Source: an uncultured bacterium (lineage in GTDB: Bacteria; Patescibacteriota; JABMPQ01; CAVVCK01). Taken from it: a stretch of 64,000 bases of DNA. The DNA is taken from positions 431,656-495,655 of the forward strand of contig CAVVCK010000002.1 of NCBI GenBank assembly GCA_963746775.1, in the 5' to 3' direction. Under the pieces are notes generated by a model. It made no database searches. It had not been told where the DNA came from and saw only the letters and a list, made by a program, of their open reading frames with translations. Positions 3,996 through 63,163 of this stretch are shown here, one piece after another. The position numbers were made by a program, and so were the translations under genes. How positions within the stretch are numbered: position 1 is the first letter of the stretch; each line of letters begins with the position of its first letter.

Positions 3996-4164
3996 AATAG
4001 AATAAATATAATTAGTATCAAAATTCCTAATTTCTAATAAAATTTTTAATATCCAATGACAAATTATTTTTGAAATTTGACATTTGGATTTTTATTAGGA
4101 ATTAGAAATTGGTAATTGGAAATTAAAACACTGTATTACATAAAACAATATTAGTATAATCCTA
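3996..4164. repeat. Family-1 intergenic inverted-repeat element (GGAATTAGAAATTGGTAAT words)
   Basis: Arms AAAATTCCTAATTTCTAATAAAA and TTTTATTAGGAATTAGAAATTGG flank a nested palindrome ATCCAATGACAAATT...AAATTTGACATTTGGAT. The words are shared with five other loci. Confidence 0.6.
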
Positions 4165-5304: not shown

Positions 5305-5358
5305 TTATTTTTAGCTAATTTATCTTATTATATTAAATAAATATTTTATATTCAACAT

Positions 5359-5390
5359 AAATAGCCTAAATATGAATATTTAGGCTATTT
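5359..5390. other. Perfect inverted repeat AAATAGCCTAAATAT-gaa-TATTTAGGCTATTT (hairpin)
   Basis: Seen directly. It is followed by a T-rich run on the plus strand. Confidence 0.4.
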
Positions 5391-5414
5391 TAAACTATTT
5401 TTCACAAAAAAACC

Positions 5415-5444
5415 TTGACATTATTACTATTATGTGTTATCCTT
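5415..5444 (+). promoter_or_regulatory. Sigma70-like promoter candidate (TTGACA, ~17 bp, TGtgTTATCCT) facing the GC-rich RNA region
   Basis: TTGACA at 5415-5420. Weak -10 with a TG extension. Orientation matches the downstream plus-strand structured region. Confidence 0.3.
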
Positions 5445-5489
5445 TATTGTTTGTTCATTTACAAAATTTCCTTTTCTCTTTATAGCCCT

Positions 5490-5960
5490 AAAATTTAAGG
5501 CTTTAATGAGGAAAGGAGGTAGCATGAGTAGCTACCCGAGTGGGTTTGTCTAACAATAGGCAAAAATGCGAACCAGACCAAGATTCGACGGGGCGTCGAG
5601 GTCTGGTTGAACTTATTTTCCCCGTTAAACCTCTAACTGACAGAAGAAAGGAGGTTAACCCTGATTAAATCAGATTATGGCATGACGGCTTGCCATTTTC
5701 TGAAGAGCAAGAATAACCGTCAAACCCCCTGCATATTAAGGAGGTAAAATGCAGGTACACAAACGCTGGTTAGCAATGCTAACTAGCGCGATCTGAGAAA
5801 ACGCCACTCAGATCGTACAGAGGCGGTTCCCTGGGAGTTACCGCCGGGCGAAAAACTCCCAAACGGCCACGCTCAAGGCCACACCGAGACAGGCGATCTC
5901 GGCATTGAGCACAGGGGGCAAGCACCACATCGATCTTTTGCTTCGCCCCCACCCTTTTCA
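5490..5960 (+). ncRNA. GC-rich structured RNA candidate of unknown class (tmRNA-like D-loop motif, but not a canonical tmRNA or RNase P)
   Basis: About 55% GC against a ~30% background. No ORF longer than 62 aa. Pseudoknot-capable stems GGCGG(5822-5826)/CCGCC(5841-5845) interleave with GGGAGTT(5833-5839)/AACTCCC(5854-5860). Several nested hairpins. Motif GATTCGACGGGG. Three AAGGAGGT-ATG mini-ORFs. A promoter-like site lies upstream and a terminator downstream. Confidence 0.45.
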
Positions 5961-9353: not shown

Positions 9354-9431
9354 ATATTAAATAATTGACCGCAAACTCTTTATTAGTACAGACAAGTTTA
9401 AAACTTGTTTCTTCATTATTAACTTTAAATA

Positions 9432-9882
9432 GGCAGGCTATAAGCCGAATTCTGTCTCATCCGCCATAGATTAACAGCGAAGGCGGATTGCCTTCATTGA
9501 AAACTACGGCGAATACTATGATCATCTATCTAGCCTTACTATTACTAGCAAGGTCATGCTTTTTATAAATTACACCAGATGGGGTTTACCCTATTATAAT
9601 GTTACCATTATAACCTGTGAGCTCTTACCTCACTCTTTTCACCATTGCCTGCCATAGCCTATAAAGGCGACGGCTGGCTGTATATGTCTCTGTGGCACTT
9701 TCCCTCACCCTATCTAGAAGATAGAGTGCAATTGCCGTTAGCAATCACCTTGTTTCAAAGTCCCAAGGATTAATAGAAAATCCTATGAGGTTTTTCTACT
9801 CTCGAATCCATAAGCTCTGAGGTGTTCGGACTTTCCTCCCCTTATTATTATATAAATAATAAGAAGCGATCATAAACCTGCC
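9432..9882 (-). ncRNA. rnpB: RNase P RNA, bacterial type A
   Basis: Minus-strand motifs GGGGAGGAAAGTCCGAAC (P4 5' strand), GGTGAAAAGAGTGAGGTAAGAGCTCAC (J11/12-P12 region) and GACAGAATTCGGCTTATAGCCTGCC (P4 3' strand/P1). The 5' GGCAGG pairs with the 3' CCTGCC. Confidence 0.85.
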
Positions 9883-10010
9883 TACTATAATAATAAAATA
9901 GCAAAGAAATTTATGCTATTATTAAAGTGGATTGGCTTATAACAAGCAATTTAGATAATATGTGAAAATTTTAACTACTCATATTATACTTATTTTAAGT
10001 CTTTTGTCAA

Positions 10011-13850: not shown

Positions 13851-13930
13851 TTTATAAAACCATCCGCTTTATCCGCCAAATCCGCTAATCCGTAAACAAT
13901 AGATAACGGATTAGGCGGATTATTGCGGAT
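13851..13930. repeat. Family-2 palindromic element (ATCCGC/GCGGAT words, REP-like)
   Basis: CCGCTTTATCCGCCAAATCCGCTAATCCGT ... ACGGATTAGGCGGATTATTGCGGATAAGCGG form an imperfect ~30-nt inverted repeat. The same core is seen at 45172, 50854 and, degenerate, at 29610. Confidence 0.65.
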
Positions 13931-13944
13931 AAGCGGAAAATATA

Positions 13945-14484
13945 TCAACGAGTCTTGTAATTCATGTTCATTATTTCTAAAAATTTTATAAATACTTGTG
14001 CTGTTACTTTAACATCACCTAAAGCTCTATGTCTATCTTCTTCTTGTATCCCTACCCCCATTCTCCTCGCTACAACATCCAAGTTGTGGCTCCTCTCATA
14101 GGGAAATAATTTTCTAGACAAATTAAGGGTACATACGAATTTTGGAATTGGCAAATTAATTCCGCAAAGATTAATCTCCGCTTGTAAAAATTTTTTATCA
14201 AAAGAAGCATTGTGGGCAACTAAAGCACTATCTCCAACGAATCGTAAAAACTTAGGTAATACTTTATACATCGTAGGCTTATTCTCAACCATTTCATCAG
14301 TTATACCATTTACTGCTGAAGCACTAAGAGATATAGGCCTTTCCGGATTAACCAGAGCTTCAAATTTTTCATTAGTTATTTTGCCATCAACTATTTTTAT
14401 AGCTGCCATTTCAATGATACGATCTCCTTGATCGGGACTTAAACCCGTGGTCTCTGTATCAAAAATTGTATACATTCTTCTCAT
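13945..14484 (-). CDS. DnaQ-like 3'-5' exonuclease (DNA polymerase III epsilon family)
   Basis: MYTIFDTETTGLSP (Exo I motif). DEDDh-family layout. Confidence 0.75.
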   Translation of the reverse strand: MRRMYTIFDTETTGLSPDQGDRIIEMAAIKIVDGKITNEKFEALVNPERPISLSASAVNGITDEMVENKPTMYKVLPKFLRFVGDSALVAHNASFDKKFLQAEINLCGINLPIPKFVCTLNLSRKLFPYERSHNLDVVARRMGVGIQEEDRHRALGDVKVTAQVFIKFLEIMNMNYKTR

Positions 14485-14488
14485 TTTT

Positions 14489-15100
14489 TTATTTTTCTTC
14501 TATAAAATATTTCTTTAAGTCTTTTCTACTCTTCATTTCAGGTAGACAATTATCTATGAAGTTTTTGTAAGTATAATTCTTATGTGGGAATTGGCTTAAA
14601 ACTATCTCTTTATTACATAAAGTCCCTGATCTTTGATTTACATAGTCTAGATAGTTAGACCAAGGATATTTATTGAGGTTATGGGTTATTTTGTGTAGTT
14701 TAGGATTTAGATTAATGTAGGCAGAGAGCCAGAGAAGATATTCGTTGGAGTTAATGCGGATGGATTTGAAGCGGTCCTGGAATAATATACCGGATTTATC
14801 ATGTTTTTTATTAAAATAAATGGTATAGCTCGTTCCTAACCTATACATAAATTCTGAAATAGCATTATCTGACGTTTGTTTTAATATGAAATGATAATGA
14901 CTAGGATTTAGGCAGTAGGCTATAAATTCTACTCCCAAAGACTCAGCCTTTTTCAGAAAGGCTGAGTCTTGAGATTTTAAGCTTCTTATGGTTTTAATAA
15001 AGCGAATATAATCTCTTGTTTCTAAAAAAATATTTCTTTTATCTACACCACGGTTGTAGATATGATAATACTCGTTATTAGAAAATATAGTCCTCCTCAT
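14489..15100 (-). CDS. IS200-like/RAYT-type HUH tyrosine-transposase-domain protein
   Basis: YHIYNRGV...YCLNPSHYHFIL (HuH motif)...GILFQDRFKS matches the Y1 transposase/REP-associated tyrosine transposase fold. Confidence 0.6.
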   Translation of the reverse strand: MRRTIFSNNEYYHIYNRGVDKRNIFLETRDYIRFIKTIRSLKSQDSAFLKKAESLGVEFIAYCLNPSHYHFILKQTSDNAISEFMYRLGTSYTIYFNKKHDKSGILFQDRFKSIRINSNEYLLWLSAYINLNPKLHKITHNLNKYPWSNYLDYVNQRSGTLCNKEIVLSQFPHKNYTYKNFIDNCLPEMKSRKDLKKYFIEEK

Positions 15101-15109
15101 GAAGAATTA

Positions 15110-16846
15110 TTACTTAGCCTTCCTAAAATCAACTACCCTAATTTGCAAATTTTTCTTCCCATTCCATTCATTACAATCAATTTCAAAAATAATATCTATT
15201 TCATTGCCAAGCTCTTTTAATTTACCATTTTTAATATTAAAATATACACCTTCAATTTGCCCTTTATTATTTTGATCATTTAAAATTAATTTTAAATGAT
15301 CCCGCCTTTTACCAATTCTATCAAAACTCATTACCAATACTTTATGAGATATAAATAAAGGTTTTTCATTATTAGCACCATATGGCTTTAATTTTTCTAG
15401 CTCATTATAAAAATCCCAATTGATATTTTTTAAATCAATCTCTGCTTCTATATTTATTTTAGGTATTAAATCTTCTTCGCTTAGTTTTTCTTCAGCAATT
15501 TTATTAATTTTTTCAGAAAATTTATCTAAATTTTCATTTTCTAAAGTACAACCAGCCGCTCCTTTATGCCCACCAAACTCTAATAATAAATCCGAGCAAT
15601 CATTTATAGCCTCAATAATATTAAAGCTTGGAATACTACGAGCAGAGCCAGCACTCTCCTTCTCTCCTCGCGTTAAGACAAAACTTGGCCTAAAATATTC
15701 CTCGCAAATCTTAGAAGCTACTATACCCATCACTCCTAATGGCCAACCTTCTTTATTAGCTATTAAAACTTTCTTTGATAAATCTAATTCTTTCTTAATT
15801 TCCCTAAAAATTTGGTCCGTTATTCGCTGTCTTTTCCTATTAGATAATTCTAGTTGATAAGATAGAAGCTTCGCAATGCCATAAGATTCTGTGGCTAATA
15901 ATTTATAGGCAGCATTAGCATGATCTAGACGTCCTGCCGAATTAATACGTGGAGCTAAATAGAAACCTACTCCAAAACTATCAACCTTGAGTAAATCTAC
16001 TTGAGCAGACTTAGCTAGAGCTTGAAATCCCTGCCTTTTGGACTTAGATAATACTTTTAATCCTTCTTGCACTAAAATTCTATTTTCACCTGTCAGAGGC
16101 GAGCAATCAGCTATTGTCCCTACCGCTACTAAATCTAATAAACTTTTTTCAAATTCTTCTTGTAGTTCCTTATTTTCCTTAAATTCTGTATTAGTTTTTT
16201 TAATTATTTCAGACCTAAAAATTGCTTGAGCTAATTTAAAAACAATTCCTACTCCAGATAGTTCTTTATAGGGATATTCATCCTTTCCTTGTTTAGCATT
16301 AACAATTATATAATCATCAGAAAATTCTTCCGACAAATGATGATGATCAAAAACAATTACATCTACTCCCTTTTCTTTAGCATAATCAATTTCGAGCTTA
16401 TTCGCTACCCCACAATCACAAGTAACAATCAATTTTATATCTTTTTTAATTAACCAATCTATCGCTTTTTTATTTAACCCATATCCCTCACGCGCCCTAT
16501 CTGGAATATACAATTGCCCGGATAAACCCAAAACTTTCTTAAATATTTCTGTTAAAACGAGAGAAGAAGTTACTCCATCAGCGTCATAATCGCCATATAT
16601 CCCTACTCTCTCTTTATTATCCATAGCTTTTCCAATTCGCTCCAGGGCCCTATCCATATCTTTAAATAAAAATGGATCATATAAATCAGAATATTTTAAA
16701 TTATAAAACTTATCGATTTTATCTTTTGTATCAATTTTTCTATTAAATAGTAATTGTAAAATAGTAGAATTATATTGAGAAAAGTGAGAAATAAATTCCT
16801 GAGGTGCTTTTTCTAATATATTCCATTTTTTTGAAATTTCAGACAT
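15110..16846 (-). CDS. recJ: Single-stranded-DNA-specific exonuclease RecJ
   Basis: DHH motifs (GIYGDYDADGVTS, DHH) and a DHHA1 region. 578 aa. Confidence 0.85.
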   Translation of the reverse strand: MSEISKKWNILEKAPQEFISHFSQYNSTILQLLFNRKIDTKDKIDKFYNLKYSDLYDPFLFKDMDRALERIGKAMDNKERVGIYGDYDADGVTSSLVLTEIFKKVLGLSGQLYIPDRAREGYGLNKKAIDWLIKKDIKLIVTCDCGVANKLEIDYAKEKGVDVIVFDHHHLSEEFSDDYIIVNAKQGKDEYPYKELSGVGIVFKLAQAIFRSEIIKKTNTEFKENKELQEEFEKSLLDLVAVGTIADCSPLTGENRILVQEGLKVLSKSKRQGFQALAKSAQVDLLKVDSFGVGFYLAPRINSAGRLDHANAAYKLLATESYGIAKLLSYQLELSNRKRQRITDQIFREIKKELDLSKKVLIANKEGWPLGVMGIVASKICEEYFRPSFVLTRGEKESAGSARSIPSFNIIEAINDCSDLLLEFGGHKGAAGCTLENENLDKFSEKINKIAEEKLSEEDLIPKINIEAEIDLKNINWDFYNELEKLKPYGANNEKPLFISHKVLVMSFDRIGKRRDHLKLILNDQNNKGQIEGVYFNIKNGKLKELGNEIDIIFEIDCNEWNGKKNLQIRVVDFRKAK

Positions 16847-29609: not shown

Positions 29610-29670
29610 CCTGCTTATCTGTAATATTTAAAAAGCGGACTTAGCGGATTTTAGCAGATACGCGGAAAAA
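29610..29670. repeat. Family-2 palindromic element, degenerate copy
   Basis: CTGCTTATCTGTAAT...AGCGGACTTAGCGGATTTTAGCAGATACGCGGAAAAATAT shares the GCGGATT..GCGGAAAA core with 13851-13930. Confidence 0.45.
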
Positions 29671-35550: not shown

Positions 35551-35685
35551 ATGATTGTAGAAATTAATTATTTAAAAATTTGATATTTGCAATAGAAACT
35601 TGGAATTAGAAAATAGTTATATACTAATTTCATTTTTCCAATTTCCATTACCAATTTCTAATATCCAAACAGCTATTTTCAATTA
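35551..35685. repeat. Family-1 intergenic inverted-repeat element
   Basis: TTGGAATTAGAAAATAG ... CCAATTTCCATTACCAATTTCTAATATCC. Confidence 0.55.
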
Positions 35686-36189
35686 TTATTTTAAAGAATC
35701 AATTGAAATTCCTACTCCTCTTGTTACTAACACAACTATTATTCCAGCAAACATAAGTCCAATAAAAATTAAAGGTAATGCTTTCTTAGCTGGTATACCA
35801 AAAACAAAAGAGGCTAGTGCTCCGCTCCACCCACCTGTTACAGGTAAAGGTATAGCTACAAAAGCGATTAAGGCTAGCGCTCCCCATTTTTCAAATTTTT
35901 CCGTGTGTTTTTTTCTAGTCTTTTCAAAAAGCCAATTAAATATTTTATTAAATATCTTAAATTTAGCCATCAAAAATTTGGAAACTGGTTCTAAAAATAA
36001 TAATATAATAGCCACAATCAGAGTATTTCCTAAAACTGAATAAAAATAAGCCCAATACCAAGACATATTATAAACAGTAATAGCAATTGGAATTGATGCG
36101 CGAAGTTCTCCTATAGGAATCATGGCAATCAGAAGGGTCGCTAATTCCTCGGGAAAATTTTGGAATAATGAAATATAGTCTAGATGCAT
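35686..36189 (-). CDS. Small membrane protein, putative small multidrug export family (COG2426-like)
   Basis: 167 aa with four TM helices. PIGELR and PLPVTGGWSGA motifs. Confidence 0.45.
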   Translation of the reverse strand: MHLDYISLFQNFPEELATLLIAMIPIGELRASIPIAITVYNMSWYWAYFYSVLGNTLIVAIILLFLEPVSKFLMAKFKIFNKIFNWLFEKTRKKHTEKFEKWGALALIAFVAIPLPVTGGWSGALASFVFGIPAKKALPLIFIGLMFAGIIVVLVTRGVGISIDSLK

Positions 36190-39107: not shown

Positions 39108-39323
39108 TTTTTCTATATATAAATATAATTATGTATTTAATTACATTTTAAATTTCTAATACCTAATATCCAATTTCTAATAAAATTTCCAATGATTGAA
39201 TGTCTAATTGAACATTAGTAATTTGTCATTTTCTTGGAAATTGTTAATTGGTAATTGAGAATTATAAAATAAAAATTTACACAAACATTCAAAAAATCAA
39301 ATAGTTTCTATTAACACTCAAAT
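39108..39323. repeat. Family-1 intergenic inverted-repeat element
   Basis: AAATTTCTAATACCTAATATCCAATTTCTAATAAAATTTCCAATG ... TTGGAAATTGTTAATTGGTAATTGAGAATT. Confidence 0.55.
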
Positions 39324-41438: not shown

Positions 41439-41930
41439 TTAAGATGCTTTTTTGCTTTTTGAAGCTTTTCTTTCTTTTTTCTTTAATTCAATCTTCTTAA
41501 TTTCACCGCCAGCTTTTTTTATTTTATCTTCTGCACTTTTGGAAAAACTATCTACTTCAACTATTAATTTTTTATCTATATTACCTTCTCCTAAAATTTT
41601 TACTTTTATCTTAAGATTATCAATTAAACCAACTTTCAACAGATTCTCTTTACCTACATTATCACCGTCTTTAAACTTTTTTGCAAGACTAGCTATATTA
41701 ATAATTTCAGGTTTTTCGAAAATTGATTTAAAGCCTCTTTTCTTTGGGATTTGTGAAATTAAGCGAGTTCTGCCACCTTCAAAACCAGGCTTTCTCTTTG
41801 AACCTGATCTTGCTTTCTGACCTTTCATGCCTCTAGCAGAATAGGTACCTTTTCCAGAACCTAGTCCACGACCAACTCTTTTCCCCTTTCTTTTTATACC
41901 TTTGCTTGGTTTTAAATCATTTAATTTCAT
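41439..41930 (-). CDS. rplO: 50S ribosomal protein L15
   Basis: MKLNDLKPSKGIKRKGKRVGRGLGSGKGTYSARG. Confidence 0.9.
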   Translation of the reverse strand: MKLNDLKPSKGIKRKGKRVGRGLGSGKGTYSARGMKGQKARSGSKRKPGFEGGRTRLISQIPKKRGFKSIFEKPEIINIASLAKKFKDGDNVGKENLLKVGLIDNLKIKVKILGEGNIDKKLIVEVDSFSKSAEDKIKKAGGEIKKIELKKKERKASKSKKAS

Positions 41931-42955: not shown

Positions 42956-43058
42956 TTTTTCTATACTAATTATTACGATGCTAATATACTAATGCATACG
43001 AATCATACGAATGAATTATTAGTATAATTAGTATTCATTCGTATATTTGTATCGCCTA
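42956..43058. repeat. Family-3 intergenic palindromic element (CGATGCTAATATACTAAT ... ATTAGTATTCATTCGTATA)
   Basis: Shares words with 52765-52856 and 55499-55586. Internal inverted repeat ATACGAAT/ATTCGTAT. Confidence 0.55.
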
Positions 43059-43598
43059 TTATGCTTCAGAAGCTGTAGCTTTTTTACCCTCTTTCTTTCT
43101 AACATGTTCATCAATATATCTAATCCCTTTACCTTTATATGGTTCAGGCGATCTCACTTCTCTTATTTCAGCGGAAATTTGCCCTACGAGCTGCTTATCA
43201 ATCCCTGAAATAATAATAATGTTTTTCTCAACTTTAAATTCAATTCCTGCTGGAGCCTCAATTTCTACTGGATTAGTATAACCAATTGTTATAACTAGCT
43301 TTTTACCTTGAATTTGCGCTTTATAACCAACACCAACAATTTCTAATTTCTTTTCAAAACCACGGACAACCCCTTCTACTAAATTACTAACAAGCTGCCT
43401 ATATGTACCCCACATGGCTTTCATTGCTTTATTCTTTAATGATACAATAATTTGTGAATCTTTCTTTTCAATTCCAACATTAGGATTTAAATCTAGTTTC
43501 AATTCTCCTTTTGGTCCTTTGCAAATAATATTGCTCTCTGTAATTTTTATTTCTACCCCTTCTGGAATTGTAATTGGTAGTTTTCCTATTCTAGACAT
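43059..43598 (-). CDS. rplF: 50S ribosomal protein L6
   Basis: MSRIGKLPITIPEGV. Confidence 0.9.
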   Translation of the reverse strand: MSRIGKLPITIPEGVEIKITESNIICKGPKGELKLDLNPNVGIEKKDSQIIVSLKNKAMKAMWGTYRQLVSNLVEGVVRGFEKKLEIVGVGYKAQIQGKKLVITIGYTNPVEIEAPAGIEFKVEKNIIIISGIDKQLVGQISAEIREVRSPEPYKGKGIRYIDEHVRKKEGKKATASEA

Positions 43599-44829: not shown

Positions 44830-45153
44830 CTAAATTACGTTTTTACATTTTTTACAAATTCTTGTCTTCTTTTTATCTTGAATCTTTGTTCCAACTCTTA
44901 CTGGTTTATTGCACTTTGAACAAAATATCATAGCGTTAGAGCTAGATATAGGCGCATTAAATTCAATTCTCTCACCTTTTTCCTTGCCTTTTCTTTGCTT
45001 TAAATGTTTGTACATCTTATTTACACCTTCAACTACAACTTTGTTATTTTCAGAAAATATCTGCAAAACTTTGCCTTTTTTACCTCTATCTTTTCCATTA
45101 ATAACTACTACTATATCGTCTTTTTTTATCTTCATAATATTTATACTTAACAT
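44830..45153 (-). CDS. rplX: 50S ribosomal protein L24 with C-terminal Cys4 zinc-ribbon-like extension
   Basis: MKIKKDDIVVVINGKDRGKKGKVLQI KOW core. C-terminal CSKCNKPV...CKKCKNVI. Confidence 0.85.
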   Translation of the reverse strand: MLSINIMKIKKDDIVVVINGKDRGKKGKVLQIFSENNKVVVEGVNKMYKHLKQRKGKEKGERIEFNAPISSSNAMIFCSKCNKPVRVGTKIQDKKKTRICKKCKNVI

Positions 45154-45171
45154 AAATCATTAACTATGTAA

Positions 45172-45250
45172 TTATCCGCTTTATCCGCCAAATCCGCTAT
45201 ATCCGTAAACTACAAATAGCGGATAAAGCGGATTCTGCGGATAGACGGAA
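45172..45250. repeat. Family-2 palindromic element (ATCCGC words) inserted between rplN and rplX
   Basis: TTATCCGCTTTATCCGCCAAATCCGCTATATCCGTAAAC...TAGCGGATAAAGCGGATTCTGCGGATAGACGG. CCGCTTTATCCGC and GCGGATAAAGCGG are exact reverse complements. Confidence 0.65.
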
Positions 45251-45280
45251 AAAACATACTGATAAATTTTATAATCTACT

Positions 45281-48996: not shown

Positions 48997-49181
48997 TTAA
49001 TAATTGATAATAAATAATGAAAATGAAATTAGTTATTTAGAAAATAGAAATTTGTAATAGATATTAGAAACTAGAATTACAAATTTCTATTTTCTACTTT
49101 CAATTACCCTTTTCTAGTTTCTGTACATCCAGTTTCATGTAAAATATTTTAAATGTGATCACTTTCAATAACAAATATAAT
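48997..49181. repeat. Family-1 intergenic inverted-repeat element inserted between rplW and rplB
   Basis: TAGAAAATAGAAATTTGTAATAGATATTAGAAACTAGAATTACAAATTTCTATTTTCTA (imperfect palindrome). A 185-nt gap in an otherwise tightly packed operon. Confidence 0.55.
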
Positions 49182-50853: not shown

Positions 50854-50915
50854 TTCCGCGCTATCCGCAAACTAAGTTATTGCGGATGATACGGATAAAG
50901 CGGATTACGCGGATC
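50854..50915. repeat. Family-2 palindromic element (ATCCGC words) in the rpsJ-rplC spacer
   Basis: TTAATTCCGCGCTATCCGCAAACTAAGTTATTGCGGATGATACGGATAAAGCGGATTACGCGGAT. Confidence 0.6.
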
Positions 50916-50932
50916 AATAAATTACGTAAATT

Positions 50933-51100
50933 AATATTTACCTATCAAAAACCGGAAATTTAAGAAGCCAGAAAACATACGCCGGCTTCTAAAATTTCCG
51001 GACCTTGCTTACTTTAAATTTACTAAATAACAATAAAATAATTATTTAGTAAATTCTTTAGCTTATACTTTTAAGTCCCGATTTTAATCGGAACTTTAAT
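50933..51100. other. Three consecutive hairpins in the rpsJ-rplC spacer
   Basis: CCGGAAATTTAAGAAGCC...GGCTTCTAAAATTTCCGG (17/18 bp). TTACTAAATAA...TTATTTAGTAA (11 bp perfect). AAGTCCCGATT-tta-AATCGGAACTT. Confidence 0.5.
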
Positions 51101-51111
51101 TATAAACTATC

Positions 51112-52659: not shown

Positions 52660-52764
52660 TTTTTTATTTTTAGTTAATAGTTATATAAAATATTAGTTTA
52701 TATTATAGCTGTAAATTTACTTATGTCAAATGTTTTTTGGGCTTTTTCACAGTATTAATATACC

Positions 52765-52856
52765 AATTTATGCGAATTATACGAATAAATACTTGATTAG
52801 TATTATTAATATCAATTAGTATGCTTATCTCGAGTATTTTCGAGAGATTAGCATCG
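52765..52856. repeat. Family-3 intergenic palindromic element
   Basis: TATGCGAATTATACGAATAAATACTTGATTAGTATTATTAATATCAATTAGTATGC...GATTAGCATCG. Confidence 0.5.
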
Positions 52857-52861
52857 AAATA

Positions 52862-53191
52862 TTAGAAATCATCATCTAGATCTTCATATAGATATTGGGT
52901 TTCATTTTTTAAATCTTCATCAGTAGAATCGCCTGTTAAAAAATGATCATCTAGATTTTTTTCCTCTTCATTTTGACTAGCGTGCCAAATAGCTATATCT
53001 TTATTGATTTTCTCTACTAATTCTTCTTTAGACATTTCTCCTATAAAAACATTTTCTGAATTAGAGACTATTTTCTTATATTCCTTAATATCCATTAATA
53101 CATATGAGGGTTTACCTTCTTCTACAATAATATACTTACCACTAGAATTTTTTAATAGATCAATAATTTCGGAAAAATCTTTTGAATTCAT
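52862..53191 (-). CDS. Small acidic protein with Phd/YefM-antitoxin-like N-terminal domain, inserted between fusA and tuf
   Basis: N-terminus YIIVEEGKPSYVLMDIKEYKKI resembles the Phd/YefM fold. Highly acidic C-terminus (EDLDDDF). No cognate toxin adjacent. Confidence 0.4.
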   Translation of the reverse strand: MNSKDFSEIIDLLKNSSGKYIIVEEGKPSYVLMDIKEYKKIVSNSENVFIGEMSKEELVEKINKDIAIWHASQNEEEKNLDDHFLTGDSTDEDLKNETQYLYEDLDDDF

Positions 53192-53392: not shown

Positions 53393-55498
53393 CTATTTCT
53401 TTTCATCTTCTCCAATAATTTCTTTAGCGACATTGCCTGGAACTTGCTCATATTTCTCGAATTCCATTGTATAATTAGCTCGTCCTTGAGTTAGAGATCG
53501 TAGTGAAGTTGAATATCCGAACATGGAAGCTAAGGGTACAAAAGCTTTGATAACTTTCATATTTGTTCTATCAGTCATTTCTTGAATCTGCGCTCTTTTT
53601 GAATTTAGATCACCTACTACATCACCCATTGATTTTTCTGGAGTAAGTACTTCGACTCTCATTACTGGTTCGAGTAAAACTGGATTAGCTTTTTTAACAC
53701 CACTACGGAAAGCCATAGATCCAGCTATTTTAAAGGCAGCTTCTGAAGAGTCAACATCATGATAAGAACCATCATATAAAGTTACTTTTACATCTATAAC
53801 CGGATAACCAGCTAATACTCCATTATCAGATGCTTCTTTGGCTCCTTTACCAACTGGCTGTATATATTCTTGAGGAATAACTCCTCCTTTTATTTCATTA
53901 ACAAATTCAAAACCCTTACCTCTTTCCTGAGGTTCAAGTCTTAACCAAACATGACCGTATTGTCCACGTCCTCCTGATTGCTTAATATATTTTCCTTCAA
54001 CTTCTGTAGCAATTGTTATTGCTTCTTTATAAGCTACTTGCGGTTTGCCTACTGTTGCTTCTACTTTAAATTCTCTCTTCATGCGATCAACTAAAACATC
54101 TAAATGAAGCTCTCCCATACCAGCTATGATTGTCTGCCCAGTATCCTCATCAGTTTTAACTCGAAAAGTAGGATCTTCTTCAGCTAATTCTCTAAGTGCA
54201 TGAGCCATTTTTTCTTGATCTGCTTTAGTCTTTGGTTCAATAGCAACTGATATAACCGGCTCAGGAAAAGTAATTTTTTCTAATATTATAGGATTATCTT
54301 CATCACATAAAGTATCACCAGTCGTTGTACCTTTTAAACCTACAATAGCAGCAATATCACCAGTATATACTTCTTTAATTTCTTCTCTTTTATTGGCATG
54401 CATACGCACAATTCTACTAACCCTTTCTTTCTTGCCAGTTGAAGCATTAAGGATATATGATCCAGCTTTTAATACTCCCGAATAAACTCTGAAAAATATT
54501 AATTTACCAACAAAAGGATCTGTGGCTACTTTAAAAGCAAGCCCGGCAAATGGTTCGTTATCATCTGTTTTTCTAATTATCTCTTTTTCTTCGTCGTGAA
54601 CATCGCAGCCATGAGCTGGTGGAACATCTAATGGCGAAGGAAGTAAATCAACTACAACATCGAGTAATTTTTTTATAACAGCTTTTCTACCATCACCGCC
54701 AAGTACTGGATAATATTCTCCAGAAATAACACCCTTGCGCATTGCTCTTTTATATTCATCTACGGATATTTCTTGGCCATCTAGAAATTTTTCCATAACC
54801 TTATCATCAGCTTCTACAATTATTTCTAACATTTCATTTCTATATTTCTCACAAATTTCTTTCATATCTTCTGGAATTTCTTTTGCTTCAGATAATTCTA
54901 AACCATCTGTACCTTCAGTATAATAAGCCTTCATTTCTAGTAAATCAACTAAGCCTTTGATATCTTCTCCTTGACCAATCGGTAACATTATAGGAAAAGC
55001 TTTATTGCTTAATCTTTCTTTAATAGAATCTAGAGATCTATAAAAATCTCCACCAACTAAATTCAATTTATTTAAAAAACATATTCTGGGAACTTTATAT
55101 TTATCAGCTTGATGCCAAACTGTTTCCGATTGTGGTTCAACACCCATTTTACCATCAAATATTACTACTGCACCATCTAAAACTCGCAGTGATCTTTCCA
55201 CTTCCACAGTAAAATCAACATGACCTGGTGTATCAATAATATTTATACGATGTTCGTTTTTTTCTTTTAAATTAGTCGGAGACCAAAAACAAGTCGTAGC
55301 TGCCGAAGTGATAGTAATACCTCGCTCTCTTTCTTGTTCCATCCAATCCATAGTAGCTTCACCTTCATGAACTTCACCAATTTTATAAGAAATTCCAGTG
55401 AAATATAAAATACGCTCTGTGACTGTGGTTTTTCCAGCATCAATATGAGCGATTATTCCTATATTTCTTATTTTTTCGAGTGGATATTGTCTTGGCAT
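53393..55498 (-). CDS. fusA: Elongation factor G
   Basis: [21 protein letters not shown]. 701 aa. Confidence 0.95.
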
Positions 55499-55586
55499 AT
55501 TTTCGATACTAATATACTAATTTATACGAATTATACTAATACAAAATTATTCGTATTATTAGTATTCATTCGTATATTGGCATCGA
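55499..55586. repeat. Family-3 intergenic palindromic element between rpsG and fusA
   Basis: CGATACTAATATACTAATTTATACGAATTATACTAATACAAAATTATTCGTATTATTAGTATTCATTCGTATA. Confidence 0.55.
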
Positions 55587-56054
55587 TTATCTTGCATAGT
55601 GTGCAAAAGCCTTATTGGCTATAGCCATTCTATGAACATCCTCTTTCTTTTTAACAGCACTACCTAAACCTTTGGAGGCTTCGATAATTTCAGAAGCTAA
55701 TTTTTGAGCCATAGGCTGACCCTTTTTGCCTCTAGCAACTTCAAGCATCCAGCGCATAGCTAGGGTGTTTTTGCGACTACCTCTAACTTCAAAAGGTATT
55801 TGGTAATTAGCTCCACCAATTCTGCGACCTTTAATTTCTAGTGTTGGAGAAACATTTTTCATGGCTTGATTAAAAACTGACATAGGATCTTTTTTGGTTT
55901 TCTCTGCTACAATATCAAAAGCATCATAAATTATAGATACAGCTACTGATTTCTTGCCACCTTTCATAATATGATTAATAAATTTGCCTATTAAAGCATT
56001 TTTATGTTTTGGATCTAGATATTCTTCTCTTTTATATACTTGTTTTTTTCGCAT
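55587..56054 (-). CDS. rpsG: 30S ribosomal protein S7
   Basis: KFINHIMKGGKKSVA ... conserved S7 core. Confidence 0.92.
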   Translation of the reverse strand: MRKKQVYKREEYLDPKHKNALIGKFINHIMKGGKKSVAVSIIYDAFDIVAEKTKKDPMSVFNQAMKNVSPTLEIKGRRIGGANYQIPFEVRGSRKNTLAMRWMLEVARGKKGQPMAQKLASEIIEASKGLGSAVKKKEDVHRMAIANKAFAHYAR

Positions 56055-56610: not shown

Positions 56611-56999
56611 TTATAGTTATAAATAAAAAAATATCTATATAAATAGATAGAAATTATATTAATTTCCTTTATCAATACTTATTATAGTAAGCAAAAAAAA
56701 GATGTCAAATGAATTTAATAAATTAGTTATTAGGAAATAGATATTATAAGATTATTTATCAAATAAAACCGAATAATCTTATTTAAAAAATAGAAACTGG
56801 CTATATAGAAAATAGAAATTGGTAATAGAAATTAGAAAAATTGAAAATAGTTATGATATAATTCAAATGAAACAAAAGCTATTTTCTAATTTCCAATTAC
56901 TATTACTATCTTCCAATTTCTAAATAGCTAATTTCAATTTCATTTTTTAAAATCTCTGATTTCATATGATATTCAATTATTAGATATTATTTCCCACAT
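56611..56999. repeat. Family-1 intergenic inverted-repeat element (largest copy) upstream of rpsL
   Basis: Left arm TAGAAACTGGCTATATAGAAAATAGAAATTGGTAATAGAAATTAGAAAAATTG. Right arm CTATTTTCTAATTTCCAATTACTATTACTATCTTCCAATTTCTAAATAG. Confidence 0.6.
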
Positions 57000-62969: not shown

Positions 62970-63163
62970 ATATTATACTATTAGTTTATTGAAATATTAA
63001 TTCTACTACCAAAACTTTAAATTACTGAAATTGGCTGTATAGAAATTAGATATTGGTAATAAAAAGTGGAAAATGGATAAATATAACCTAGGTAAAATAA
63101 TATCTAATTTCTAACTTCTAATTTCCATCACTATTTTCCAATTTCTATATAATTAATTTCTGA
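62970..63163. repeat. Family-1 intergenic inverted-repeat element
   Basis: AATTGGCTGTATAGAAATTAGATATTGGTAATAAAAAGTGG ... TATCTAATTTCTAACTTCTAATTTCCATCACTATTTTCCAATTTCTATA. It shares GGCT(A/G)TATAGAAA(A/T)TAG with 56778. Confidence 0.6.

Follow-up and report, generated by a model that had tools for sequence, protein, structure and literature searches.

Does a gene related to the RAYTs (REP-associated tyrosine transposases; REP, repetitive extragenic palindromic sequence) disperse the palindromes found close to it? The question is raised by a 64,000-nt stretch of a patescibacterial contig (CAVVCK010000002.1), here called the window, in which a single gene for a Y1/HUH protein (HUH, histidine-hydrophobic-histidine) lies near a palindrome made of ATCCGC and GCGGAT words. 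Related palindromes, collectively called family A, are found in spacers of the ribosomal-protein operon. The preliminary description of this DNA explained their dispersal by a RAYT acting on its cognate REPs. The reading preferred here, to which a probability of about 0.55 is given, is that two separate things sit side by side, a set of mobile family A palindromes and a resident RAYT-like Y1 gene carrying a palindrome of its own. The nearness of the two is most likely coincidental, a functional link being possible.

One 64-kb window of the 547,535-bp source contig was read, and figures for family A copies are to be taken as three to four per 64 kb. The G+C content of the window is 31%, and nearly all its genes are on the minus strand. 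Comparisons were made with DNA loci of relatives and homologs (L122, L123/L124, L130, L131, L133-L137). The Y1 protein of L123/L124 is 65% identical to that of the window, at a DNA identity of about 80%, and that of L136 is 73% identical. L130, L131 and L133 were picked through their L4 homologs (72-75% identical) and used for the ribosomal-protein cluster. The gene in question, and the palindrome hosted by it, are the following.

14489..15100, minus strand: Y1/HUH (RAYT-like) gene, 203 aa; HuH motif H68-Y-H70, candidate catalytic tyrosine Y128 in SAYINLNP
14938..14970, in frame within the Y1 gene: perfect palindrome, AAGACTCAGCCTTT-CTGAA-AAAGGCTGAGTCTT on the coding strand; 14-bp stem, encoding QDSAFLKKAESL (aa 44-55)

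Palindromes internal to Y1 coding sequences were first noticed in L135, where a hairpin scan of the homolog loci disclosed a perfect stem of 32 bp. The window holds eight perfect stems of at least 11 bp with loops of 3-8 nt, and the one at 14938-14970 is the sole GC-containing stem located in a well-supported gene. Residues 44-55 form the linker between helix A and the strand preceding HuH, and in the AlphaFold model the pLDDT (predicted local distance difference test) is below 50 at residues 45-52. Five of the six homologous genes sequenced in other organisms (L136, L123/L124, L122, L135 and L137) carry a different palindrome at the matching position, the Y1 gene of L134 having none. Stems measure 14-15 bp in L136, L123/L124 and L122, and 40 bp in L137, where the stem is part of an 86-nt palindrome. 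Between the window and L136 the fourth stem pair changes from A-T to G-C, a compensatory change which costs two amino acid replacements, D to G and S to P.

DNA evidence comes from these seven genes, one in the window and six from other organisms; the remaining homologs were back-translated, the longest perfect stem permitted by any codon choice being sought for each protein. Back-translation recovers the known cases, and for protein P0019 predicted 43 bp where the DNA then gave 40. Stems of at least 20 bp are possible in 46 of 120 Y1 homologs, and stems of at least 24 bp in 22. The corresponding figures are 3 and 0 for 120 shuffled Y1 proteins, and 7 and 0 for 120 L4 proteins. Removal of the linker leaves two Y1 proteins out of 117 in which 20 bp or more can be accommodated. 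Stems of at least 15 bp are possible in 94 homologs, and are found at 25 residues or less before HuH in 82 of them. Taken together, the DNA cases, the compensatory change and the back-translation data indicate that a palindrome at a fixed pre-HuH position would be a trait of the family as a whole, in which pairing is kept while the sequence turns over. The internal palindromes are unlike family A in sequence. Their membership in a dispersed repeat family was also considered, and rejected because a search of 9-64 kb of flanking DNA at four loci (window, L122, L123/L124 and L135) detected no second copy.

Identification of the host gene product as a Y1/HuH protein, already made in the preliminary description, is well founded. 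The search with PF01797 (Y1_Tnp of Pfam) gives 36.1 bits at a cut-off of 23, and the motifs NPSHYHFILKQ, containing HuH, SGILFQDRFKS and LSAYINLNP are all present, so that HuH and the Y---NP signature are intact. Residues H68, H70 and Y128 are invariant in an alignment of 30 sequences. An alignment of 120 homologs shows no variation at Y128, F107 and Q75, and conservation in at least 90% of the members for H68, H70, the N-terminal YYHIYNRGVDKR and the WSSY tail; the proline of Y128-I-N-L-N-P varies within the wider family. The AlphaFold model (pLDDT 81.5) finds its top fold match in the Protein Data Bank (PDB) in 4ER8_A, which shows the E. coli RAYT in complex with a REP hairpin (E 9.9e-7, template modelling (TM) scores 0.59/0.72). 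Transposases of IS608, ISDra2 and IS200 rank below it with E values of about 1e-4, and the best IS608/ISDra2 chains have a query TM score (TMq) of about 0.40. PDB was matched by fold comparison alone, sequence searches with the single protein and with a profile giving no match. With the NCBIfam equivalog model NF047646 (REP_Tyr_transpos) the protein scores 39.1 bits, below the cut-off of 80, and no C-terminal helix-turn-helix (HTH)/DnaA_C-like domain was found by Pfam search.

Homologs of the Y1 protein number 2292. Among the 120 matches listed most align across about the full length, and every one with a named source is from Patescibacteria (Parcubacteria, Paceibacteria, Moranbacteria, or "Patescibacteria group"); no relatives were found in the viral contigs searched. 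As classified by Quentin et al. 2018 (PMC6006769), class 2 TnpAY1 proteins (TnpA_REP) are marked by the Y---NP motif, and among them subclass 2.1 (Bertels group 1) features the motif set NH[YF]H, FQ, Y[IV]xLNP and SS tail, and REPs were not found nearby (PMC6006769). By motifs alone, the Y1 protein resembles this subclass. Motifs and fold support its assignment as a putative RAYT-class Y1/HUH single-strand-DNA endonuclease with intact catalytic motifs, belonging to a family that spans Patescibacteria and plausibly acts on single-stranded DNA hairpins.

Family A palindromes, to which no strand is assigned, were found at all four sites reported in the preliminary description, one near the Y1 gene, two in ribosomal-protein spacers and one degenerate.

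13862..13938 (A1): four words of the ATCCGC type and four of the GCGGAT type, separated by a 14-nt loop, between the stop of an exonuclease gene and the start of a peptidyl-prolyl isomerase (PPIase) gene
45174..45249 (A2): palindrome in the L14/L24 (rplN/rplX) spacer
50854..50914 (A3): asymmetric palindrome, two words in one arm versus four in the other, in the S10/L3 (rpsJ/rplC) spacer, downstream of two conserved hairpins
about 29610..29666 (A4, decayed): between hypC and an EamA transporter gene; three GCGGA words left in one arm, the other arm mutated

All four copies are in spacers, and the genes flanking A3 (S10/L3), A2 (L14/L24) and A4 (HypC/EamA) were assigned by Pfam. Three clear palindromes and a decayed one compare with a chance expectation of none. 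The 23-mer CCGCTTTATCCGCCAAATCCGCT occurs exactly twice in the window, at 13864 and 45176, and never in 100 shuffles; the pattern ATCCGC-N3-4-ATCCGC-N3-4-ATCCGY is found six times versus 0 expected, and 15 of the 24 ATCCGC/GCGGAT hexamers of the window fall within the A1-A4 sites. On either strand, elements read as ATCCGC-type words, an AT-rich loop of 12-15 nt and GCGGAT-type words. Word starts are 8-10 nt apart, mainly 9, and self-similarity is maximal at lag 9 in A1-A3, at a value reached by none of 300 shuffles. Family A arms are tandem 9-nt units, ATCCGC plus a 3-nt spacer, repeated about four times per arm, and are not small palindromes. The build of REPINs, two short inverted REP palindromes, is not matched, each arm being a direct array. 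In the hairpin the GC-rich words are paired, and the 3-nt spacers often unpaired. The folding check suggested in the preliminary description has a positive outcome for part of the family: as single-stranded DNA, and relative to shuffles, A1 (-26.3 kcal/mol, z -6.5) and A2 (z -7.2) fold strongly and A3 weakly (z -2.8), and A4 gives no hairpin signal (z -0.75). A1 and A2 have one arm near-identical (34/35 nt), the other arms being unlike in spacers and register. The feet of the elements are TTTTCCGC... and ...GCGGAT(G/A); no GTAG/CGTC guide tetranucleotide is found at the hairpin foot, GTAG being seen solely in the loop of A2.

The spacers hosting A2 and A3 stand out, as adjacent ribosomal-protein genes are otherwise spaced by 1-18 nt. 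The S10/L3 spacer measures 279 nt, and the L14/L24 spacer 127 nt according to the open reading frame (ORF) call. The L24 start conserved in relatives is located at 45133-45135 (ATGAAGATAAAAAAAG), 18 nt downstream of the first in-frame ATG, and the spacer is therefore 145 nt long. Other interpretations of the words were examined. A promoter within the conserved arm (TTGGCG-17-TATAAA) was not called by the scan, and is not in excess over shuffles. The DnaA-box reading of TTATCCGC was dropped because a like build is found in other word families and the sites are dispersed.

When metagenomes were scanned with the conserved 20-mer GGATTTGGCGGATAAAGCGG, five matches were obtained that look like chance, none of them in Patescibacteria. 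Palindromes made of the same words were observed across phyla, in Acidobacteriota, Chloroflexota, Gemmatimonadota, Planctomycetota, Verrucomicrobiota, Bacteroidota and Rhodothermales. They are organized as (GCGGAT-N3-4) x3-4, loop, (ATCCGC-N3-4) x3-4, with spacers pairing between arms, and several share similar outer flanks, AGAATGGGAC...GTCCCATTCT or GAAATAGAAC...GTTCTATTCT. Examples are given below; others are among L002-L121.

L039, 7302-7402
L013, 727-810
L113, 2523-2595
L067, 4049-4138
L009, 7299-7371

At least 2+2 words are present in 21 of the 120 cross-phylum loci listed, all in the order GCGGAT...ATCCGC. In the loci listed, these arrays correspond to no Rfam family, lack a Y1 gene within 8 kb and do not recur beside any particular gene. 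Their identity with family A was rejected on these last two grounds and for the opposite word order; they plausibly represent an element of unassigned kind spanning phyla.

Insertion sites were compared among relatives, as the preliminary description had suggested. Presence of family A varies, in keeping with mobile DNA of the REP/REPIN type. Coverage allowed the L14/L24 spacer to be compared in L131 and L130, and the S10/L3 spacer in L130 and L133 (L133 and L131, respectively, falling outside the covered DNA). The L14/L24 spacer measures 145 nt in the window, 48 nt in L131 and 10 nt in L130, and in alignments A2 corresponds to an insertion of about 98 nt relative to both, spanning approximately 45158-45255; in L131 the first 26 nt and the last 15 nt of the spacer are alignable, the 98 or so extra nt of the window lying in between. 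A3 is absent in L130, and a decayed look-alike is found at the identical point in L133. Conservation at the same loci in relatives, which the preliminary description would have held against its own view, is found for A1 in one relative and lacking in another: L123/L124, about 80% identical in DNA, feature the gene order of the window and an orthologous A1 in a spacer of equal length (117 nt), and in L136 A1 is absent, the exonuclease stop overlapping the PPIase start (ATGA) with zero spacer. In the L123/L124 element the PPIase-proximal arm is identical, and the other arm shows CC to TT and G to T changes.

The segments of about 35 nt on either side of A1 are diverged copies of one that L136 has once. 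CAGTATG and TAGTTAATG bracket A2, and L131 shows a single TAGTATG in their place. These direct repeats differ in length, with about 35 nt at A1 and about 7-9 nt at A2, are diverged and rich in A+T, and are regarded as no more than suggestive. When traits of miniature inverted-repeat transposable elements (MITEs) are considered, the whole family A element is an inverted repeat, and the flanking direct repeats are not of fixed length. Relatives have other palindromes elsewhere among the ribosomal-protein spacers, for example at L16/L29, S17/L14 and L18/S5 in L131. The comparisons point to gain or loss of family A at three loci among close relatives, and to decay in place (A4, L133). Variable presence at three loci and decay would denote a REP/MITE-like behaviour rather than fixed regulatory sites, which are disfavoured by the lack of A1 in L136.

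Genes surrounding the Y1 gene are tightly packed.

15110..16846, minus strand: recJ (DHH, DHHA1 and RecJ_OB domains by Pfam), 9 nt upstream of the Y1 gene and in one operon with it; arrangement kept in L123/L124
13945..14484, minus strand: gene for a DnaQ-like 3'-5' exonuclease of the RNase_T family, next downstream of the Y1 gene after a 4-nt gap; arrangement kept in L123/L124 and L136

The order recJ-Y1-exonuclease is conserved in L123/L124, and its Y1-exonuclease-PPIase portion in L136. No REP or REPIN copies flank the Y1 gene, since gaps of 9 and 4 nt inside an operon leave no space for these or for the ends of an insertion sequence (IS), and no tnpB-like ORF adjoins it. The nearest palindrome, A1, is about 550 nt away, as indicated in the preliminary description, but is one gene off, the whole exonuclease gene intervening, and is not flanking. 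More distant homologs have unlike neighbours, inositol monophosphatase and Ham1 in L122, an SLT/SH3 protein in L134, an FAD oxidoreductase and MgsA/RarA in L135, but are co-oriented with them throughout, with gaps of 9-37 nt; no flanking repeats were found in these three loci. As to the low copy number and vertical descent of RAYTs, one copy of the Y1 gene is seen in 64 kb, and its neighbours are unchanged in L123/L124 and L136. The Y1 gene behaves like a resident gene, and not like an insertion sequence.

At least two additional families of palindromes were observed in the window. Family B includes AT-rich palindromes with arms made of tandem 7-nt units (AGAAAT/TAGAAA versus TTTCTA), found at six or more sites. 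Family C palindromes consist of ATACGAAT/TACTAAT-type words, have a weak periodicity near 9-10 nt, and are found at three sites.

Family B: 4008-4128, 35559-35687, 39214-39274, 48999-49110, 56782-56961 and 63016-63161, including the L23/L2 spacer and the spacer 56611-56999 beside the S12 gene
Family C: 42956-43064, 52730-52842 and 55484-55595, in the L6/L18 spacer, upstream of EF-Tu and in the S7/EF-G spacer

Several family B and C sites (L23/L2, L6/L18, S7/EF-G, upstream of EF-Tu) fall in the str/S10/spc cluster, and an element related to family C was found in the L6/L18 spacer of L131. The palindrome in the spacer between two minus-strand genes at 2788-2853 is near-perfect, its core of 20 bp (ACAAATACGTAGGGGTTCAAAA/TTTTGAACCCCTACGTATTTGT) being perfect, and is unrelated to families A-C.

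How the palindromes and the Y1 gene relate to each other can now be weighed. If mobile palindromes and a resident gene simply lie side by side, family A would be a small family of non-autonomous, REPIN/MITE-like palindromes whose inverted arms pair GC-rich words, and which are gained, lost and decaying in spacers over the time that species take to diverge. Two of them would be tolerated in the S10/spc operon, probably without terminating transcription, since no U-tract is associated with them. Spread may result from a general process acting on hairpins, either slippage with hairpin-templated copying or a structure-reading enzyme. Such a process is suggested by the occurrence of at least three palindrome families, of which B is clearly of tandem-unit build (periodicity in C being weak), and growth by slippage with hairpin-templated copying is suggested by the tandem-unit arms. 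Several points weigh against this separation. Apart from the Y1 gene, no candidate for a mobilising enzyme is seen in the 64 kb, and REPs are known to have RAYTs as partners, which leaves coincidence unproven; A1 occupies the nearest spacer downstream of the Y1 operon. Other Y1 copies, or family A copies flanking them, may lie beyond the window; the AT-rich, diverged direct repeats could be over-read, and the palindromes may have a host role, for example as barriers at mRNA 3' ends, which would be compatible with mobility. A true RAYT-REP pair, the Y1 protein binding ATCCGC hairpins in single-stranded DNA at the replication fork, cutting and rejoining them, and spreading the family into the ribosomal-protein operon, is a possible, if doubtful, alternative. 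It draws on the fold nearest to the REP-bound E. coli RAYT and the intact HuH and tyrosine motifs, on the stable hairpins of A1 and A2, on copies gained or lost between relatives, on the place of A1 just mentioned, and on a Y1 gene which, like RAYTs (PMC5581495), would be present in one copy and inherited vertically among close relatives. Yet the cognate pair invoked in the preliminary description is unsupported: repeats do not flank the Y1 gene, nor its homologs in other Patescibacteria, the RAYT model of NCBIfam is matched at 39 bits with a cut-off of 80, the motifs fit a subclass reported as REP-less (PMC6006769), and the hairpin feet have no GTAG/CGTC tag. Besides, family A arms are tandem 9-mers and not small palindromes, the palindrome internal to the Y1 gene is unlike family A, and two further palindrome families are found in a window with a single Y1 gene.

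It is rather unlikely that family A elements are host cis-regulatory sequences, such as mRNA decay barriers, attenuators, processing sites, or an operator array tuning PPIase, L24 and L3. Each copy occupies a spacer immediately preceding a gene of the transcribed strand, words are regularly spaced, and a relative retains A1 at this locus, the PPIase-proximal arm being 100% identical. In the other arm, C to T accounts for three of four substitutions (L123 and L124 counted), and in these pairing would persist as G-U in the sense RNA, but C to T is also the mutation bias expected in an AT-rich genome. Moreover, the elements lack terminator-like sites, promoter-like sites are at the level of shuffles, no Rfam family matches the palindromes, L136, L130 and L131 have no elements at the corresponding junctions, and A3 is asymmetric and A4 decayed. 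Similarly improbable is the proposal that the internal palindrome is a cis-acting hairpin substrate or control site of the enzyme itself, and that the family represents a domesticated hairpin-processing nuclease, which here would work with RecJ and the DnaQ-like exonuclease on single-stranded DNA, making or removing scattered tandem-word palindromes, family A included. An error of assembly, or a GC-rich hexamer that clusters by chance, would fit the small copy number only; as shuffles give zero matches and A1 is also present in the independent assembly of a related organism, this reading is already refuted and has a negligible probability.

Additional observations concern other parts of the window. 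The S10/L3 spacer features, at about 50940-51111 on the minus strand, two hairpins conserved in the window, L130 and L133 (AAAGTTCCGAT..ATCGGGACTT, and CCGGAAAyTTTAGAAGCCGG...CTGGCTTCTaAAgTTTCCGG followed by TTTTT). They have no match in Rfam, and are probably a conserved leader or attenuator located between rpsJ and rplC in the clade. The 568-nt spacer at 5305-5872 has a raised G+C content (38%) and, on the minus strand, a predicted fold of high stability (-188 kcal/mol); no Rfam family was found in it even at relaxed threshold, nor any tmRNA or tRNA, and the spacer may encode an undescribed structured RNA. A 109-aa ORF (52862-53191, minus strand) weakly matching Phd/YefM antitoxins is located between the EF-G and EF-Tu genes, its position being kept in L130 and L133. 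A DJ-1/PfpI family gene is found between S5 and L15 in L130 (17918-18433) and L131 (9459-9968); the ORF of matching size at this place in the window (41439-41930) is assigned by position alone. The bacterial class A RNase P RNA maps at 9425-9885 on the minus strand (166 bits).

RAYT-like genes, REP-like palindromes and in-frame palindromes in RAYT genes are all of already-known kinds. The tandem-unit build of the repeats, the operon-embedded Y1 family found throughout the candidate phyla radiation (CPR), and the palindrome fixed before HuH are variants of these. A full-text literature search retrieved no paper linking RAYTs or REPINs with Patescibacteria/CPR, despite the abundance of the Y1 gene family in these organisms. 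Hairpin insertions of about 100 nt that differ between close relatives in the most conserved operon show that spacers of small, packed genomes are still remodelled, and arms of tandem 7-9-nt units are an unusual build that hints at how elements grow. The Y1 palindrome, at a fixed position and with pairing kept while sequence and peptide change, offers a testable handle on RAYT-like recognition, and touches the general question of why RAYTs persist as single-copy genes.

Among known systems, REP/REPIN and RAYT sets (E. coli REPs and bacterial interspersed mosaic elements (BIMEs) with YafM, PDB 4ER8; Pseudomonas REPINs) are similar to family A in featuring hairpin repeats of 60-100 nt, confined to spacers, often within operons, and subject to gain and loss. 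Genomes hosting them encode a single-copy Y1/HUH protein, and the window, where one copy is seen, resembles them in the Y---NP signature and in a fold best matching 4ER8. In contrast, the arrangement with REPs flanking the RAYT gene (REPtron) and the GTAG/CGTC tag are both missing here, family A arms are tandem 9-mers and not two small inverted palindromes, family A is seen in three to four copies per 64 kb, and the window protein is below the NCBIfam RAYT cut-off. IS200/IS605 elements share the catalytic fold, but here there are no subterminal hairpins at the gene, no tnpB and no second copy in 64 kb, and Y---NP replaces Y---Q. If the internal palindrome were a cis-acting site, it could be likened to the origins located within phiX174 gene A and pT181 rep. 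Protein-coding genes accommodate palindromic DNA without loss of frame also in the case of Rickettsia palindromic elements. These are dispersed in multiple copies in many genes, whereas the Y1 palindrome is unique, and is found in one gene family at one position.

Within the TnpAY1 classification, subclass 2.1 (PMC6006769) shares with the window protein NH[YF]H, FQ in place of WQ/WE, Y[IV]xLNP and the proximal SS tail (WSSY here), as well as the lack of REPs adjoining the gene and, probably, low copy number. Its members have a median length of 238 aa, versus about 200-230 aa in the window family, which differs also for the lack of a Pfam-detected C-terminal HTH/DnaA_C-like domain, for the internal palindrome, and because source-named homologs among those listed are all from Patescibacteria. 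The nearest precedent for the internal palindrome is provided by subclass 2.4 (Bertels group 4), whose tnpA_REP genes contain in-frame REP insertions between HuH and Y, with copies of these REPs at the gene flanks as well (PMC6006769). In both, a frame-keeping palindrome falls in a variable, surface-exposed stretch of the coding sequence. Subclass 2.4 proteins have different core motifs (NH[IFV]H, WQ, YIxNNP), and here the palindrome is located 13-24 aa before HuH, between helix A and strand 2, and not between HuH and Y, has no second copy in the 9-64 kb flanks of four loci, and keeps a fixed position in most members.

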